A stretch of DNA of 64,000 bases from an uncultured delta proteobacterium. Lineage in GTDB: Bacteria > Desulfobacterota > WTBG01. Made by a program: the position numbers. Shown piece by piece: positions 6,001-27,000 of the stretch. The number at the start of each line of letters is the position of its first letter. Within the stretch, counting starts at the first letter, position 1. The DNA is taken from positions 1 to 64,000 of the forward strand of contig CAWCBP010000002.1 in the NCBI GenBank assembly GCA_963793865.1. The letters run 5' to 3'.

Positions 6001-9000
6001 AAGGGAGGAACGGTGGTGGGGTACTACGAAATTCTGGCACAGGAAAAGGTACAGGAAAAGAAAGTAGAAAAGACAAAGGAGCAGATTAAAGCGGAAGCCT
6101 TAAAAATAGCGCCTGAAATAAGCAAAGCCTTTGCTGCGGGCAAATGAACCTCGAAAGGAATATTTCCCGGGAAACCGCCTGCACCGCAGTGCGGCTCATG
6201 ATATTTCCTCAACCATTGCCGCAACATATTTTCCTATAGCCGGAGACGAGGTAAGCCCGGGAGATTCGATGCCGACAAGATTAATGAAATTCTCAAGGCC
6301 GCGATCCGCTTCATGCCTGACTATGAAATCCTTCATGGGTTCCCCCTCTTTCTGAACTTTGGGATGAATGCCCGCTATGTCAGGATTGATCTGTTCCATT
6401 TTCAGAAATGGCAGAAATGATACCGTGGAGCGGTAAAAATAGTCGCGCAGCGATTCGTCAACCGTATAGTCTATTTTGTCAACCCATACGTCGTAGGGCC
6501 CCAGGCGCATCCCCCCGCCGAGATCGGGGGTGGTGTGTATGCCCACAAAGCCCGGCCACGGCGGCACAGGATAGATGAGCATTGTGGGAAACCGGCTGAT
6601 GCTGCCGCTCACCCGGAAGTACATCCCCTTGCAGTAGCTGATCCGGTAGCCTGCCTCATCAACATCTATGCCCAGCATCGCCGACACGTTCCCCGACTCG
6701 AGCCCCGCGCAATTTATCAAGATCCTGGTCCGGAACTCATAATCCCTGCCGGCCGTGTCGTTCACCCGCACGAGGTATCCGCCGCCTTTCTTCTCCACCG
6801 CCCTCACTTCGGTGTTGTAGACGACGGCTGGCGCCTCCCTCGATGGCAGACCGCTCATAGTATTGCATCAGGCTATGGGAATCCACAATCCCTGACGTGG
6901 GACAGAGGATCGCTGCCCGCGCGGACACCTTCGGCTCTTGGATTCTCATTTCCTCCCCGCCGATGATGCCACGCCTTTAGCCCCGTTGTTCCGTGCGGTT
7001 TGGAGCAGCTGCGGCAGCTGTTCCTCATCCTGTTCACTCACGGCAACAATCAGCTTCCCGGTCCTGCGGTGAGGGATGTTGTGCCGTTCGCACAGCTCAT
7101 ACATCAGCTCATTTCCCTCCAGGCAGAATCTGCCCTTCAGCGAGTTCTGCGGGTAATAAATGCTCGCGTGAATCACCTCGCTGTTCCTGCTTGATGTCTC
7201 CTGCCCGAAAGAGGCATGCCTTTCAATCAGGACCACGTTTCTGCTGCCGTTGGCAACGCAGGAGGCAACGGAAAGCCCAACCGCCCCTGCCCCTATTATG
7301 GTTACATCCGCTTGTTCCATTACCTATCCTGGATTGAAGTTACGGGTCAGCCTTAAAACAGTTTGTGACGTCAGGCTAGCATCCTGACATCACTAGACAT
7401 GCGTGGGAATCATGCTTGTGCCCGATTTCATGCGGTCCCGCATGGTACCGGCGTTGTAGCCGCTTGCCTTTAGTTTTATCAGGTATGCTTTAAAGGTATC
7501 ATTTCCATACGGAGGCGAAAAGTGGCTGACAACTGACCAGTATTTTGCGGCTTCCAGGTAAAAAGCCATCCGCTTAAACATGGGAGCACCATACTGATAG
7601 CCTTCATGATCTTGATCCGCCGCTCCCAGGATTCCATGGATACAACCGTAAATTTCTCCGGCTTGCCCAGCACCTCGAACAGCAGCTCATTGGCCCGCCT
7701 TAGAGTACAAATATTGTCTTCCACCCATGGCCCGCCCACCGGAAAGATTCTTCCGTAATTATTCTCATTAAAAAGCAGGTTGACAATGAACTCAGAGAGG
7801 TTTTCCCGTGAAATGGGGTTGCTCACCGCCCACTCGCCGTGATCAAAAATACGGCAGGGCCTGTCGTTCTGCACTTCGCTGAAATTGATGGCCAGGTGCG
7901 GGTAATAGGAGGTGGGCCGCACAATCGAATAATTTACCGGCCCGTGAAAATGGCCGATGAGTTCCCCTTCAACCTGGAGTTTGTAGACCTGGGGCAGTAG
8001 TTCCGGGCGGTAGCAGCCGCTATCGGAGATATGAATGAAATGTTTCAGGCCCCTTCCTGCCCCTGCCTGAATGGCGTTAACATTGGACCGGTAATCAACC
8101 CGCCGGCACTCCTCTTCATCATTGGGTCGGCGGCTGCTTAAAAGGGTTATGACCGCTTCCACCGGAAAGGCATCAAAGACCTTCTCAACATCCGCCTTTT
8201 GACTCACCTCCCCTATGACAACCTCAGCGTGCGGATACGTTTCCTGAGCCTGCGCGTGCCGTGCAAGCAGCACCGGTTTATAACCGCGCTGCGCCAGTTC
8301 GGGAACCAGCGCCCTGCCGATATAGCCCGTGCCGCCCAGCACCAAAACGTGCTGCCCGCTGCCCTGACCCACCTTGCCGGTTGTATAGGTAGTATCCTTG
8401 GTTGCAAGCGCTTTGGTAATAAGCAACCTGACTTTCGCCTGTTCCTCATCCTTTCGTTTGTGAAGCTCCTGGATTGTGCTGTAAGCCATAAAGAACCCCT
8501 TCTCTTAAAAGCCTACTCTTCTTATTATTCTTTTCTCACAAAGCGGACAATGAAGATCTGTCTGTCTTCACTTTCCCCTGCGGTAACGTATCGGCGTGCT
8601 CGTACCAATGCTCCTTTTCTTCTCATTGGTGCGGAACTGCTGAAAATAACCCCTTTATCTCCGGCACAAGGGCGACGGTATCCCTGATGATCTGTTCTTT
8701 CGCACGTTCTATCTTTTTCCCATCGACTTCTTCTTTGGCAAGGATCTGGTAATAGCCGACCACATCACCACCGGCTTTTCGCACCAGGTTCTTGCCCTTC
8801 TCCTTGTACTTCTCTTTTTCAAAGGCGTTGGTGGTGGTATAAATGATCACCTTTTTCCCGTCAAACCGGTTCCGGTCAATGAACGTGCGAATGGCCATGC
8901 TCAGCTTGCCGGTCCAGATGGGAGATCCAAGTATTATATTTTGATACCCGGTGATCTCAATTTTTTCAGGTTCAATCTTGGTATGTTTACCGACAAGCGA

Positions 9001-24000: not shown

Positions 24001-27000
24001 TGGGGCCCCATCGAGATCAACCCGGTGGTGGTGGACATTCTGAACACCGTAACCGGCATGGAGATGACCGTGGCGGAGGCGGAGATCACCGCGGAGCGCA
24101 TCTGGAATGTGATGCGCGCGTTTGCGGCGCGGGAAGGACTGCGCCGGGAAGACGACTCGCTGCCCAAGCGTTTCCTCACCGAACCCATCCCCGACGGCCC
24201 TTCAAAGGGCATGGTCATCACCCCGGAAATGCTTGAGAAGATGAAAGACGAGTACTACCAGCTGCGCGGGTGGGACAGGGAGACCGGGATCCCCACACCG
24301 CAGCAGCTGCTGAAGCTCGACCTTCCTGATATTGCTGAAGACATGAAAAAGATACTGGGCCAGTAAAAGGAGAGGTGATACAAGATGAGCCGTGTTAAAT
24401 TCTGGACTTTAATTTCCCTTGCGGTAGTGCTTTCCATCAGCGTCTCAGCGGCTTTATCAAACAAGCAGGATGATCAAAACTACCGCCATGACTATGTCTA
24501 TCAGGACACGAGCCTGGCGGGGAAGCCGGGTATCCTTATCACCGCCCTGGGGCAGCCGGAAGAATACGATTTTAATTTCTTCAATCGCTACATCAGCATG
24601 ATCTTCCGGACCGCATTCCCGCCGGCACTCAAGCTTATCATCATGCAGGACAAGGGGACCGTGCTCATGGATCCGGAGCATCTGGAAGCCGCTGAAGAGT
24701 ATCAGCCAAAAGCACTCATGGACTGTCTTGGCAAAACCGCGGATGAAGAAGGGGAGCCTTATGTGGACCTTAAAGATCTCGAATGGGTGCCTTCACGGGA
24801 CGGCGAGTCGCCCGGCCATTTTCTGCTGCCGGGGAAAAACGGTTACATAGACGCGGTTGAGAAGGTCGGTGTTAAAATCGCCGCTTCATATTATCCCAAG
24901 ATGCCCGGGAAAAAGGTCCCCTACACCCGGCAGCATCTTGAGATTATCAATGAAGTCGGGGCCATGCTCAAACAGGCATTTCCCGATGTCCCCATGCGCT
25001 GGGGCTGGACCATGGAGCCGGAAACGGTTGAAACAGCGGTTGACCAACTGATTGTGGAAGACAAGGTCAAGACCATTGTACACTGCGATATATTCCCCGT
25101 TTATTCCTCCCTCGAGCACTTCAACACCCTGTACCAGGACGTGAAAGATGCGGTCGCGGAACGGGCCAAGGTAATCTTCACTCCCTGCCCGGGGGCTTAT
25201 CCGTCATTTCGGAAAGGCATCGAATTGATGGCAACGGATGAAGTGCTCTCCCTGCCAAAGGAAGACCGCAAGCTTCTGGTGCTCACACGACACGGCTGGC
25301 CGGACATCAAGGGAGACCCCTACCCGGAACTCGGCAGGGTGTATTACTGGAACCTGAAATCAGAAATAGAAAAAGCCATCGAGGGAACCAATACCCTGGT
25401 CGTGTACGCGGATACGGATTTTGCCGGGGATGCCGACGATCCCAAGCATAAGCGGCTGGCAAGTTTTGAAGCCCTGGAACTGGGCCTTGAGGAAAAATAC
25501 GATCACATCATCTTTCAGATGGTCGATTTTACCAGCGAGAACACTGACACCATCTTCGCAATGCGTCTTGAAACCTTTGAGCCGCTTCATTTTGAATATG
25601 GAGAACAGGTGCCGTACACGGACTGGTCAAAACCATTCAGAACCGAGCTCAAGGGAGGAAGGGATTTTCACTACACGCTGAAAGAGGGAAACGGGGAGAG
25701 CGCGGCCCGGGTGGTGGTGCTCGGCGTGCCGGTCGGCCCGCGCTACCGGCCGCACATATCCCGGGGACTCTTTGATTCCATCGCCACGGTTCTGAAGGGA
25801 GAAACGTGGCCGCAGCTGGTGCTCGAGGAAAAAGTGGAGAAAAAGGGCATGTTTTAACCGGTGGAGCAACCCAATTATCTAGTGTAGTGCGTCCAACACT
25901 TCTTTACTTATGAAAGGCTTCTGTGTGTTGCGAATACCATGCTGTAGAGGAGGTTCAGTGGCTCAAAGGGGAGGGGCTTTTGACGCCACAACAATGTGTC
26001 TTTAGGCTTACGGCACGAGCCGGTGCCTTACGACTTAAACCGAGACAGGCAGCTATACAGAGACTTCGATACGGCTGTTACTATGCGGGTCTGTCGGACA
26101 AAGTTAGAGAGATGCTGCCGTTCTACAGGTTCCGAATAATTTTGTTGTGGCTAAAAAGCCCCTGCCCCTTGAGCCACATATAAATAAAGTAATCAATAAC
26201 GCACTACACTAGGTAGGGGTCACAAACATACATCAACACAAGAGCAGGAGGAGAGCCTATGAAGAGCCCGCGCAAACTATTTCTGATGCTGGTTATTGCC
26301 GCCCTCGTTTTCATCACGCCATTGGCGCGTGCCCAGGAAGTCGCCGCGGATGATATTCTCATCTTCTACTATTCGCGCACCGGGAATACCAGAATGGCCT
26401 GCGAGGCGCTGCAGAAGGAACTCAACGCCCGGCTGATTGAGATCAAAGATCTCACTGACCGCTCGGGAGCGTGGGGCGGGCTCACCGGCATGCTCAATAC
26501 CCTTTTCAACATGGAAACCGGCATCGATCCCGAACACCCTGACCTTTCGGCCGGCACCAGCATCATACTGGCGTCCCCTCTGTGGGCGGGAAAGCTTGCT
26601 CCGGCAATTCGCACGCTGATTGCGCGCAATAAATTTGACGGCAAGAAGGTAATCATTTTTACCACCGGCAATGCCATCCTGGATGAAAAGAACCAGGAGA
26701 AAAACAAGGCGCCGGTTACCGCTGCCGGCGGCGAGGTTGTCGATTATCTGCAGGTCGCGGTCCAGGAAAAGGTAAATGATGAGAAGGTGGACAGGCCGAA
26801 GGAAAAGGTTCTGGAGGATACCATAAAATTGGTGCCCGGGATTAAAAAGTCGTTTTCGCTGCCGTAACTGGATGTTCGCCGGGGATGAACCGGCTTGAAG
26901 GGGCGTAGAGCATTATTACGCAGCTTCAAGCCGGCATTTCATTTCCAGCCCCTCCTGAACCAATTTCAGGATCTGATGTATTTGAAACGGTTTCTGAATG

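Follow-up and report, generated by a model that had tools for sequence, protein, structure and literature searches.

FDBR-fold proteins and short CPOX-like proteins form a lineage-specific radiation in the class WTBG01 and may act as oxygen-free reductases

Ferredoxin-dependent bilin reductases (FDBRs) of the PebB/HY2/PebA branch, with solved structures 6qx6/6qwq, 6kmd/6kme and 2x9o, are proteins of approximately 230 to 280 aa without a cofactor-binding motif. Outside phototrophs, FDBRs are represented by the pre-PcyA proteins of heterotrophic bacteria, which, according to the accessible text of Rockwell 2023 (PMC10151467) and PMC13446030, do without Glu76 and His88 of PcyA and reduce biliverdin made with oxygen; among them, Pre-1 features a Glu at the Asp105 position. 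RCCR (PF06405; 2zxl, 3aga) is a catabolic enzyme acting downstream of the oxygen-dependent pheophorbide a oxygenase, as described in the available part of PMC10151467. HemF/CPOX (PF01218; 3ejo, 5eo6, 2aex) is likewise oxygen-dependent, whereas the organism studied here shows no sign of oxygen use. Oxygen-free reductions of linear tetrapyrroles are performed by ChuW/ChuY in anaerobic haem degradation and by BilR of gut bacteria. These proteins are functional analogues of the role proposed below, but belong to families unrelated to the FDBR-like set. ChuY is an SDR-type protein, and an NmrA/NAD_binding_10 SDR is also encoded in the window.

The window analyzed is a stretch of 64,000 nucleotides from an uncultured bacterium of the class WTBG01 (Table 1). 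Its block 7479-24366 contains one member of the FDBR-like family only, referred to as the window copy, which corresponds in size to the PebB/HY2/PebA proteins, likewise lacks a cofactor-binding motif and is predicted to be cytoplasmic from the lack of a hydrophobic segment. Foldseek matched its AF2 model (pLDDT 94.2, pTM 0.91) to PebB (6qx6, E 9.5e-12, TM 0.82) and PcyA (2d1e, TM 0.82), and the fold is shared with the PebB/HY2/PebA branch (TM 0.79 to 0.82) as well as with RCCR (TM 0.66 to 0.70). Glu90 occupies the position of PcyA Asp105, as in Pre-1, and Asp208 that of PcyA Asp220; the PebB/HY2/PebA proteins likewise possess an acid at the former and an Asp at the latter position (PebS Asp206 / HY2 Asp256). 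As judged from the model, the window copy is an FDBR-fold protein keeping both acidic proton-donor positions. However, identity to PebB/HY2/PebA is just 13 to 18%, and the NCBIfam PebA and PebB equivalogs yielded only about 20 bits compared to cut-offs of 263 to 283. In a FastTree phylogeny (154 rows), PebA/PebB/HY2-type representatives formed one clade, whereas the 16 copies of this genome were placed in three other lineages, the window copy in lineage B. Its 85 homologues show identities of 37 to 98% (some rows being fragments), and the few that are named are hypothetical or carry automatic PebA/PebB labels.

Table 1. Features of the window around the FDBR-like gene.
Feature	Coordinates	Strand	Evidence
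NmrA/NAD_binding_10-type SDR and two flavodoxin-like proteins	7479..10552	-	Pfam; context only
YgiQ-family radical SAM gene	11996..13705	+	NCBIfam TIGR03904, 799.9 bits vs cut-off 462
FDBR-like gene, 234 aa	13759..14463	+	Pfam Fe_bilin_red, 38.7 bits vs cut-off 31; sole family member in window
163-aa protein, no known family	14589..15080	+	no Pfam, NCBIfam or PDB match
CrtI/carotenoid-isomerase-family FAD enzyme	15166..16782	-	Pfam Amino_oxidase
Two genes, no Pfam match (275 aa and 241 aa)	17008..18602	+	hydrophobic-segment scan
BchF-like small membrane protein	18694..19146	-	Pfam BCHF, 88 bits
Separate same-strand unit	19540..25857	+	Pfam, NCBIfam, hydrophobic segments

The YgiQ gene lies 53 nt upstream of the window copy on the same strand, and the two genes are probably co-transcribed. 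YgiQ precedes the FDBR-like orthologue in close relatives only (three of 16 longer loci: L040, L041 and L048), and the 163-aa gene, which follows the window copy after repeat hairpins, is retained in these three loci only. Synteny weakens below approximately 80% identity; an FMN_red flavoprotein is encoded directly upstream of the orthologues of about 70% identity in L042, L043 and L055, and in L065 (63% identity) a CrtI-like gene is located downstream, as in the window. The latter gene is convergent with the FDBR-like unit and reached 143.6 bits (carot_isom) and 128.5 bits (crtI_fam) in NCBIfam, both under the cut-offs. Of the two proteins without a Pfam match, the 275-aa protein contains hydrophobic segments at residues 63-87, 189-208 and 255-275, and the 241-aa protein is polytopic in the membrane. 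An Atlas search returned unnamed clusters only for both, and a paralogue of the 241-aa protein (C1_1013117-1013860) is located inside another FDBR/CPOX-like locus. The BchF-like gene is present as a single copy in the genome. The separate unit encodes a MarR protein, two membrane proteins (one of 258 aa and a NapH-like Fe-S protein), a tungsten-type AOR and, with a hydrophobic segment at its N-terminus, a chelatase-fold protein of 490 aa. The AOR reads as two frames (22427-23317 and 23041-24366), which would be fused by an extra G behind 23057 observed in three public runs. Both flavodoxin-like proteins feature N-terminal hydrophobic segments; four of the six paralogues of this type in the genome are encoded in the window.

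Screening of the whole genome (completeness 98.6%) by Pfam hmmscan identified 12 called proteins matching Fe_bilin_red (34.6 to 124.3 bits; cut-off 31 bits) and five matching Coprogen_oxidas (37.9 to 101 bits; cut-off 31.8 bits), the same counts as in the preliminary description. In a six-frame search, PF05996 was matched 14 times at E<=0.01 (11 over cut-off) and PF01218 five times (always over cut-off). Furthermore, the previously claimed total of 17 FDBR-like and seven CPOX-like loci was reproduced with independently built in-genome profiles; these loci fall into 17 regions. The FDBR profile added C1_67141, C14_249310, C1_520908, C11_113920, the split gene C1_444925/445433 and C1_1011113, and cross-matched the CPOX-like C8_198177 at 2.6e-4; the CPOX profile added C6_141614 and the split gene C1_1165327/1165571. 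Concerning expression, a weak hint only was obtained.

The two sets are genuine homologues of FDBR-fold and CPOX-fold proteins, respectively. A profile of the 16 FDBR-like paralogues matched solved structures of HY2 (5e-29), PebB (1e-28), PebA (1e-19), PcyA (1e-15) and RCCR (8e-7), and across the profiles used, E-values for the PebB/HY2/PebA branch ranged from 1e-19 to 2e-38. RCCR was matched by a 104-sequence profile at 4.6e-17, and only one copy in the genome, the ferredoxin-fusion paralogue, passed the RCCR Pfam cut-off of 24.9 (30.6 to 30.9 bits). Likewise, a profile of the six intact CPOX-like paralogues matched solved HemF at 2e-27, a CPOX-like model (pLDDT 81) did so at TM 0.81 to 0.84 (E 3e-13), and all six share the Asp of the D-L-x-P stretch. 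In contrast to HemF, none of the six has an intact H-x-N-x-R stretch, they are short (248 to 275 aa, whereas most of the matched HemF chains have 292 to 336 resolved residues), and one to six copies per genome occur here, some adjoining FDBR-like genes. Pfam scores are just 38 to 101 bits, and 41 relatives reach 113 bits at best with PF01218; therefore, a HemF of canonical strength is not present among them. In the preliminary description, an hhalign comparison of the two sets was reported to give no match. This has to be revised, since the 16 FDBR-like and six CPOX-like paralogues matched at 79.4% (E 1.5e-5) and enlarged profiles at 96.4% (E 1.1e-9), with controls at or below 0.6%.

Residue equivalences were taken from Table 2 in the accessible portion of PMC13446030. 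An acid at the PcyA Asp105 position is present in 11 of 16 FDBR-like paralogues (missing in five) and an Asp at the PcyA Asp220 / PebS Asp206 / HY2 Asp256 position in 12 (missing in four). Eight copies, including the window copy, carry both and 15 at least one; C1_520908 lacks both and directly adjoins a copy having both. The alignment thus supports that the predicted FDBR proton-donor residues are kept by most paralogues. According to the available text of PMC13446030, mutation of the Asp105 equivalent in pre-PcyA enzymes did not always end activity, which makes the retention of these residues a soft argument.

Neither haem oxygenase, phytochrome (PHY), phycobilisome protein or phycobiliprotein, globin, haem-copper oxidase (COX1), cytochrome bd nor a true ChuW/HutW (best match 194.7 bits, cut-off 400) was found in the 98.6%-complete genome, in agreement with the absence of the first three and of globin stated earlier. 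Hence, unlike PebB/HY2/PebA, the family is accompanied by neither a haem oxygenase nor a bilin-binding acceptor, and the haem oxygenase and globin partners of pre-PcyA proteins are likewise absent. Since the genome is without means of making biliverdin or using oxygen, the chemistry must be oxygen-independent. FDBR-like matches occur in 31 and CPOX-like matches in 32 of 41 genomes of the class, and a single genome of these non-phototrophic anaerobes can contain as many as 22 PF05996 matches; PF05996 was found in none of 195 genomes elsewhere in the phylum. This distribution supports a real, old and lineage-specific radiation. Two families of the class are without both gene sets (0/8 and 0/1 genomes), and the function is therefore dispensable. 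DNA runs containing 21 to 49% of the window's words bear freshwater, sediment, soil or wetland labels; the exception is X11, with a coded organism label.

The claimed fusion of one copy to a 2x[4Fe-4S] ferredoxin proved to be real (C1:67141-68142, 333 aa), and 25 of 41 relatives encode it at full length (44 to 97% identity). In five of 17 regions, a family member neighbours or is fused to a Pfam-annotated 4Fe-4S protein, and small strict-motif ferredoxins are encoded within 1.5 kb of two regions (0.23 expected, p 0.022). Otherwise, gene neighbourhoods vary from locus to locus. MarR or TetR genes adjoin four other loci, and enrichment of AOR genes (25 loci in the genome) is weak, with six of 17 regions within 10 kb (2.4 expected, p 0.023) and three within 3 kb (1.0 expected, p 0.08). 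Chlorophyll-type neighbours are all far under the curated NCBIfam cut-offs (BchF-like 68.3 bits vs 101, BchB/Z-like 166 vs 490, BchE-like 208 vs 481), and no tetrapyrrole-specific neighbour, haem or bilin transporter was found around the family loci. Further neighbours point away from tetrapyrroles; they include O-demethylase-type corrinoid methyltransferases and, beside one FDBR-like copy, a BilR/BaiCD/2,4-dienoyl-CoA-reductase (DCR)-like Fe-S flavoenzyme reaching 382 bits with the BilR-long model, half the cut-off of 750. Of the radiated, ferredoxin-driven ene-reductase toolbox proposed in the preliminary description, radiation, fold, residues, fusion and oxygen independence thus stood, while the tetrapyrrole/polyene substrate found no firm support in the sub-threshold chlorophyll-type genes, the varied neighbourhoods and the weak AOR enrichment.

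Based on these results, we tentatively propose, at a probability of roughly 40% for the statement as a whole including the substrate class, that the family comprises oxygen-free reductases driven by ferredoxin or flavodoxin and working on pigment-like compounds from outside; the narrower claim of oxygen-independent reductases driven by these carriers appears reasonably probable. An old radiation of cofactor-free FDBR-type reductases, joined by short CPOX-like proteins as a sister set, would span most of the class. Catalysis is pictured as follows: each FDBR-like enzyme, the window copy being one of them, would hold a conjugated substrate between the central beta-sheet and the C-terminal helices and receive single electrons from a low-potential carrier. 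The latter would be the fused ferredoxin in one paralogue and presumably a neighbouring ferredoxin, flavodoxin-like or FMN_red protein elsewhere, and the two conserved acidic residues may donate protons while a C=C bond is reduced via substrate radicals. Substrates, the point calling for the greatest caution, might be ready-made bilins, phyllobilins or other tetrapyrrole/polyene debris from sediment, soil or wetland.

Re-use of the fold for non-tetrapyrroles such as enoyl-thioesters, phenylpropanoid/lignin-derived aromatics, quinones or isoprenoid/polyene chains, as a general ferredoxin-driven ene-reductase toolbox of an organism that specialises in the breakdown of complex organic matter, is possible but rather unlikely. 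It would fit the 4HBT thioesterase and FabG-type SDR genes preceding the fusion gene, and a CPOX-like gene inside a corrinoid methyltransferase/RACo unit followed by a GGR-like and two FAD_binding_4 genes, whose paralogues (28 to 34% identity) follow an FDBR-like pair. GGR-like genes occur in four of 17 regions; CrtI-like (window), OYE/2,4-dienoyl-CoA-reductase-like, Amidohydro_2, Phenol_MetA_deg channel, Mla lipid transport and lipocalin-like neighbours, the numerous AOR loci and 20 PNPOx-like genes in the genome point the same way. However, all characterised fold members (FDBR, RCCR, HemF) use a tetrapyrrole according to the accessible parts of PMC13193486 and PMC10151467, half of the paralogues keep the bilin-type acid pair, and no one alternative substrate class recurs among the loci.

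Tailoring of a cell-made modified tetrapyrrole, lipid or cofactor is improbable, although one locus resembles a biosynthetic cluster. It comprises two FDBR-like genes, three genes for small ferredoxin-type proteins (Pfam Fer4 matched two of them, and the third is alike by BLAST), the B12-radical SAM enzyme (BchE/HpnJ-like), SAM synthetase and SAH hydrolase, with the BchB/Z-like nitrogenase-type protein upstream, and a module that combines an FDBR-like pair with a ferredoxin and a small protein of 136 to 174 aa occurs twice in the genome. Scattered, deeply diverged paralogues with MarR/TetR neighbours suit substrate diversity better than one pathway, and the families devoid of both gene sets also argue against this explanation. 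Even less credence is given to the view that many copies are not enzymes and either bind or carry hydrophobic or pigment ligands or act as regulatory partners for copies that are catalytic. The missing acids, C1_520908 beside its intact neighbour and the recurring tandem pairs (C1:520k and C14:247-250k) would be consistent with such roles, but nearly all copies retain an acid, and the conserved covalent ferredoxin fusion is sensible only for electron transfer.

For the FDBR-like and CPOX-like families, the profile-level match between them is new. For the organism, if the proposed oxygen-free reduction of outside pigment-type molecules applies, these may serve as electron sinks or enter catabolic steps, the latter being comparable to the role of RCCR, and separate paralogues would act on separate substrates.

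In total, 12 called proteins of the genome exceeded the Pfam cut-off for ferredoxin-dependent bilin reductases (FDBR; Fe_bilin_red, PF05996) with 34.6 to 124.3 bits, and five exceeded that for oxygen-dependent coproporphyrinogen oxidases (CPOX or HemF; Coprogen_oxidas, PF01218) with 37.9 to 101 bits vs 31.8, none of the latter being encoded inside the window. These counts agree with the preliminary description and with a six-frame scan of the genome (PF05996, 11 + 3; PF01218, 5). The further members it had named were likewise recovered with profiles of the genome's own copies, amounting to 17 FDBR-like and seven CPOX-like loci in 17 regions, two of these loci appearing as split genes. 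A profile of 16 FDBR-like paralogues matched the solved HY2, PebB, PebA, PcyA, PebS and red chlorophyll catabolite reductase (RCCR) (5e-29 down to 8e-7), and a profile of the six intact CPOX-like copies matched HemF at 2e-27. Moreover, the AF2 model of one CPOX-like copy (pLDDT 81) adopts the HemF fold with TM-scores of 0.81 to 0.84. The CPOX-like copies include C1:437215-438003 and a pair at C8:197417-198959. The FDBR-like and CPOX-like genes of this genome are real homologues of FDBR and HemF.

The block 7479-24366, previously taken as representative of the family, does contain a real member, but only this single one. Its surroundings are summarized in the following table.

Features of the window around the FDBR-like gene
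Feature	Coordinates	Strand	Remarks
Flavodoxin-like genes (Flavodoxin_4/5)	5395-6147, 8623-9249, 9827-10552, 26259-26867		four paralogues in 21 kb
YgiQ-family radical SAM gene		same as FDBR-like gene	53 nt upstream of FDBR-like gene; 799.9 bits
FDBR-like gene	13759-14463	+	234 aa; Pfam Fe_bilin_red 38.7 bits vs cut-off 31
Three GC-rich hairpin repeats	14481-14600		between FDBR-like gene and next gene
Gene for 163-aa protein without known family	14589-15080		beyond the repeat hairpins
Cation-efflux gene		opposite to FDBR-like unit	near FDBR-like gene
CrtI-family flavoenzyme gene			convergent with FDBR-like unit
Two genes without assigned function	17008-17835, 17877-18602		products with hydrophobic segments
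BchF-like gene			after the preceding two genes; Pfam 88 bits; NCBIfam 68 vs cut-off 101
Further gene compared with the family profiles	20120-20896		
Separate MarR-headed unit			membrane protein, NapH-like Fe-S protein, AOR, chelatase-fold protein with N-terminal hydrophobic segment
AOR gene	22427-24366		two overlapping frames
Chelatase-fold gene	24385-25857		weak ferrochelatase match
Repeated element of ~335 nt	25879-26213		13 to 14 nt inverted repeats at both ends

No hydrophobic segment was found in the FDBR-like protein of the window. Its AF2 model (pLDDT 94.2) shows the alpha/beta/alpha sandwich of solved FDBRs, with TM-scores of 0.82 to PebB (6qx6) and PcyA (2d1e) in a Foldseek search. 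This search yielded 45 matches at E<=0.001, and the matches listed were all FDBR, RCCR or the PcyA-like subunit of the Ycf2/Orf2971-FtsHi complex; TM-scores were 0.66 to 0.70 to RCCR and at most 0.60 to HemF. The NCBIfam equivalog cut-offs for PebA and PebB were not reached (20.3 to 20.5 bits vs 263 to 283), and the RCCR model PF06405 gave no match to this protein at E<=0.001. Residues were mapped by HMMER alignment to Synechocystis PcyA, using the equivalences in Table 2 of PMC13446030. In this alignment, Glu90 occupies the acidic proton-donor site (Asp105 in both PcyA and PebS) and Asp208 the position of PcyA Asp220, PebS Asp206 and HY2 Asp256, both residues being unchanged in 21 of 21 orthologues. 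Among 16 paralogues, 11 possess an acid at the Asp105 position, 12 an Asp at the Asp220 position and eight both acids, while one copy (C1_520908) has neither. Glu or His at the positions equivalent to PcyA Glu76 and His88 was found in 0/16 paralogues, the window copy having Leu and Ser there.

As the preliminary description had maintained, haem oxygenase, phytochrome (PHY), phycobiliprotein and globin genes are missing: no match to PF01126, PF00360, PF00502 or PF00042 was obtained at E<=0.01. Thus, neither a supply of biliverdin nor a bilin acceptor was found in the whole genome, which is 98.6% complete and in which haem-copper oxidase, cytochrome bd and true ChuW/HutW were not detected either. 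A HugZ-type haem oxygenase among the neighbouring PNPOx-like genes was ruled out (20.2 bits vs a cut-off of 240). From all these absences, together with the 25 loci of the aldehyde-ferredoxin-oxidoreductase-type (AOR) family, we infer a strictly anaerobic lifestyle. The conserved H-x-N-x-R stretch of HemF has a substrate-binding or catalytic role. At the corresponding positions of the six CPOX-like copies, the His of solved HemFs is present in two, the Asn in four and the Arg in one, and all three residues together in none. Judged from their context, the CPOX-like proteins are unlikely to perform the O2-using decarboxylation of coproporphyrinogen III, because oxidases are absent, HemN-family radical SAM genes are present in the genome and one to six CPOX-like copies per genome occur in 32 of 41 relatives. 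HemF of canonical strength was absent from all genomes checked (41 relatives), the top score being 113 bits.

Within class WTBG01, PF05996 matches at E<=1e-4 were detected in 31 of the 41 genomes, with five to 22 per genome. Both FDBR-like and CPOX-like genes are missing from the same two families (0/8 and 0/1 genomes); as the class genomes are kin, these absences represent about two independent events and not a statistic. Across the phylum, sampled evenly, PF05996 was found in 6/6 genomes inside and 0/195 outside the class. Given these copy numbers per genome and the lack of a biliverdin route, the fold probably has a large, uncharacterised oxygen-independent life.

Searching 1.84 billion cluster representatives with the 16-paralogue profile retrieved 1042 proteins at E<=0.001 (54 at 1e-30); among the best 150 of these, 109 were without an NCBIfam match to PebA, PebB or PcyA at E<=1e-25, whereas five exceeded a curated cut-off. 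A word-indexed search with this profile returned chiefly orthologues of the window copy, few of them with names. A FastTree phylogeny was calculated from 154 rows, namely 132 representatives of at least 200 aa (18 shorter ones being left out), 16 own copies and six CPOX-like sequences as outgroup. In this tree, in which PcyA and RCCR were not identified, 37 rows of the PebA/PebB/HY2 type form one clade (support 94), and the own copies are distributed among three further lineages (16, 21 and 74 rows); the backbone between the four FDBR-like lineages shows no resolution. For most own copies the nearest row is an outside representative, and the duplications therefore look old, excepting the near-identical pair C1:440007 and C14:217415.

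According to PMC13193486, FDBR and CPOX share a fold with no significant sequence similarity, and the preliminary description had also reported no hhalign signal between the two groups. However, such a signal was found here. The 16 FDBR-like paralogues aligned with six CPOX-like paralogues at 79.4% (E 1.5e-5, 173 columns), and 104 non-canonical FDBR-like sequences aligned with 37 CPOX-like sequences of the class at 96.4% (E 1.1e-9, 204 columns), pairing an E-K stretch, a proline motif, a D-x-x-P stretch and the C-terminal Asp. For 37 canonical FDBRs vs the same 37 CPOX-like sequences, hhalign gave 9.4% (E 0.0035), in agreement with the similarity statement of PMC13193486. As controls, the CPOX-like alignment was reversed, five alignments with shuffled columns were used and four unrelated families of the genome were compared; no value exceeded 0.6%. 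Moreover, no FDBR-like row scored above 16.3 bits against the CPOX-like profile, indicating that there was no cross-contamination, and the FDBR-like profile matched 22 of the 37 CPOX-like sequences with 15 to 35 bits. The main source of the signal is the largest lineage, D, which alone gave 93%; lineages A (13%) and B (34%) alone stayed below significance, so that lineage D and the pooled set were the only significant ones. Since the profile of the 104 FDBR-like sequences matched no HemF chain in the PDB at E<=10, the link is a stepwise one, from HemF to CPOX-like, from CPOX-like to FDBR-like and from FDBR-like to FDBR sequences.

Based on these results, the best-supported mechanism would be a cofactor-free reduction of the FDBR type, with electrons provided by a ferredoxin or a flavodoxin-type carrier. 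One FDBR-like copy (C1:67141-68142) is indeed fused to a 2x[4Fe-4S] ferredoxin, as had been noted before; it is also the sole copy of the genome above the RCCR cut-off (PF06405, 30.9 bits vs 24.9), and 25 of 41 relatives carry the full-length fusion with identities of 44 to 97%. The fusion and the adjoining ferredoxin or flavodoxin-type genes point indirectly to ferredoxin as the putative donor of the FDBR-like copies. Proteins of the 4Fe-4S type adjoin or are fused in five of the 17 regions, and two regions have a small strict-motif ferredoxin at a distance of up to 1.5 kb (0.23 expected, p 0.022). An enrichment of ferredoxins of any size was rejected, the strict 4Fe-4S motif occurring within 3 kb of 4/17 regions vs 2.0 expected (p 0.12, fusion excluded). 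An N-terminal hydrophobic segment is common to the four flavodoxin-like proteins of the window, suggesting that these flavoproteins are exported or anchored in the membrane.

The gene neighbourhoods vary among the 17 regions, and their statistics are modest. Recurring neighbours are flavodoxin-like or FMN_red genes, geranylgeranyl-reductase-like (GGR-like) flavoenzymes (four regions), SDRs and AORs, and MarR or TetR genes stand beside four loci in addition to that of the window. An AOR lies within 10 kb in 6/17 regions vs 2.4 expected (p 0.023) and within 3 kb in 3/17 vs 1.0 expected (p 0.08), and PNPOx-like genes within 5 kb in 3/17 (p 0.09); a partnership with AOR or PNPOx-like proteins deduced from adjacency was considered too weak. 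Besides its AOR-family loci, the genome encodes 20 PNPOx-like genes, several of which (250 to 285 aa) are located a few kb from AORs, e.g., at C6:125-128k, C14:332-336k and C13:3-6k. Twice in the genome, an FDBR-like pair is grouped with a small protein and a ferredoxin into a module, and two paralogous cassettes (28 to 34% identity) consist of either an FDBR-like pair or a CPOX-like gene followed by GGR-like and FAD_binding_4 genes. Among 16 longer loci carrying orthologues of the window copy, several of them from near-identical populations, a YgiQ gene is located upstream in three, a CrtI-like gene nearby in three, and an FMN_red gene directly upstream in three and near in two more, these five all at ~70% identity.

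Three further loci are described here for their gene content. At C14:240000-258000, a BchB/BchZ-like nitrogenase-type protein with PCP_red tail (166 bits vs 490) is accompanied by MarR, two FDBR-like and three small ferredoxin-type genes, a BchE/HpnJ-like B12-radical SAM gene, SAM synthetase and SAH hydrolase; the locus reads like a methylation-plus-reduction cluster. At C11:129000-145500, a CPOX-like gene lies within a series of genes that share one strand; it is preceded by genes for a B12-binding corrinoid protein, a URO-D-like methyltransferase, an MtrH-like protein and a RACo activator and followed by a GGR-like and two FAD_binding_4 genes. At C14:217415-220155, a TetR gene is divergent from an FDBR-like gene directly followed by one for a 652-aa Fe-S flavoenzyme (OYE plus Pyr_redox_2), whose scores against the BilR-long, BaiCD and mycofactocin-OYE models come to about half of the respective cut-offs.

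The gene for the 163-aa protein, the two genes without assigned function and the gene at 20120-20896 were considered as hidden family members and discarded, being unmatched by the in-genome FDBR and CPOX profiles; three of the four products contain hydrophobic (membrane-type) segments. An Atlas look-up of two window genes of no assigned function gave unnamed clusters for one and no informative result for the other, and PDB sequence searches of the chelatase-fold protein, a PNPOx-like neighbour and the 163-aa protein returned nothing useful. The chelatase-fold family, with weak ferrochelatase matches, has paralogues at C1:3158-4609, C14:270797-272677 and C1:772568-774011. In the AOR gene of the window, the public sequencing runs X18, X20 and X1 show an extra G behind position 23057, with which the two frames would become one. 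The break in the frame is hence probably due to misassembly or strain-specific, and some other split genes of the genome may be assembly errors. The 130-nt hairpin-repeat stretch has 133 blastn matches in the genome and shows a depth spike in four runs. Besides dozens of shorter pieces, the genome contains three more nearly complete copies of the ~335-nt element with identities of 89 to 95%. The depth of this element was 1056 vs about 15 in one DNA run and very high in an RNA run too. It resembles a miniature inverted-repeat element and has no Rfam match; within 7000-27000 no Rfam family reached its gathering score. Contigs of the sediment metatranscriptome X18 cover parts of the YgiQ, FDBR-like, CrtI-like, NapH-like and AOR genes with identities of 92 to 96%. 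They were discounted as expression evidence, as they derive from a relative, DNA carry-over is possible and contigs cannot rank genes.

Regarding the substrates, pigment-type molecules from outside the cell rank first among the candidates, because the known members of the fold all act on tetrapyrroles, the bilin-type acid pair is kept and the habitat of the organism accumulates such debris. DNA runs containing 21 to 49% of the words of the stretch are labelled as freshwater, sediment, soil or wetland, except for one with a coded organism label. Non-tetrapyrrole substrates are nearly as likely on the basis of the gene neighbours. We regard a wider scenario as speculative and rather improbable as a whole. 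It would make FDBR and HemF/CPOX true homologues descending from a common stock of oxygen-independent, ferredoxin-driven enzymes of anaerobes, with the radiation in this class as the surviving reservoir and oxygen-linked bilin reductases, RCCR and HemF as later offshoots. The in vivo role would then be to break down or respire buried bilins, phyllobilins or debris of porphyrins without oxygen, in a process not described so far.

Uncharacterised metagenomic lineages are known to specialists, as is evident from PMC13193486, PMC10151467 and PMC13446030, and the queries in the supplement of PMC13193486 include metagenomic sequences designated "candidate pre-PcyA", "Unknown" and "Candidate CPO". 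Full-text searches found no paper on multi-copy FDBR-like families in anaerobes, some sequences of which published trees may already include, and none on FDBR-like and CPOX-like genes occurring together or being linked in sequence, published tree figures being outside the scope of such searches. A literature search for the catalytic residues of CPOX yielded no usable result. The characterised FDBR, RCCR and HemF all depend on oxygen, directly or via an upstream step, and on this basis the fold was dated after oxygenic photosynthesis (PMC10151467). A common anaerobic stock, if true, would contradict this proposed rise of the fold with oxygenic photosynthesis (PMC10151467). Through the anaerobe sequences described here, FDBR and CPOX become connected by sequence and not by fold alone, making the homology of the two families testable. 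The conserved ferredoxin fusion, with its built-in putative electron donor, is a candidate that lends itself directly to biochemical work. Should buried photosynthetic or haem pigments prove to be the substrates, these genes would be markers of a new pathway by which pigments are turned over in sediments, wetlands and soils.
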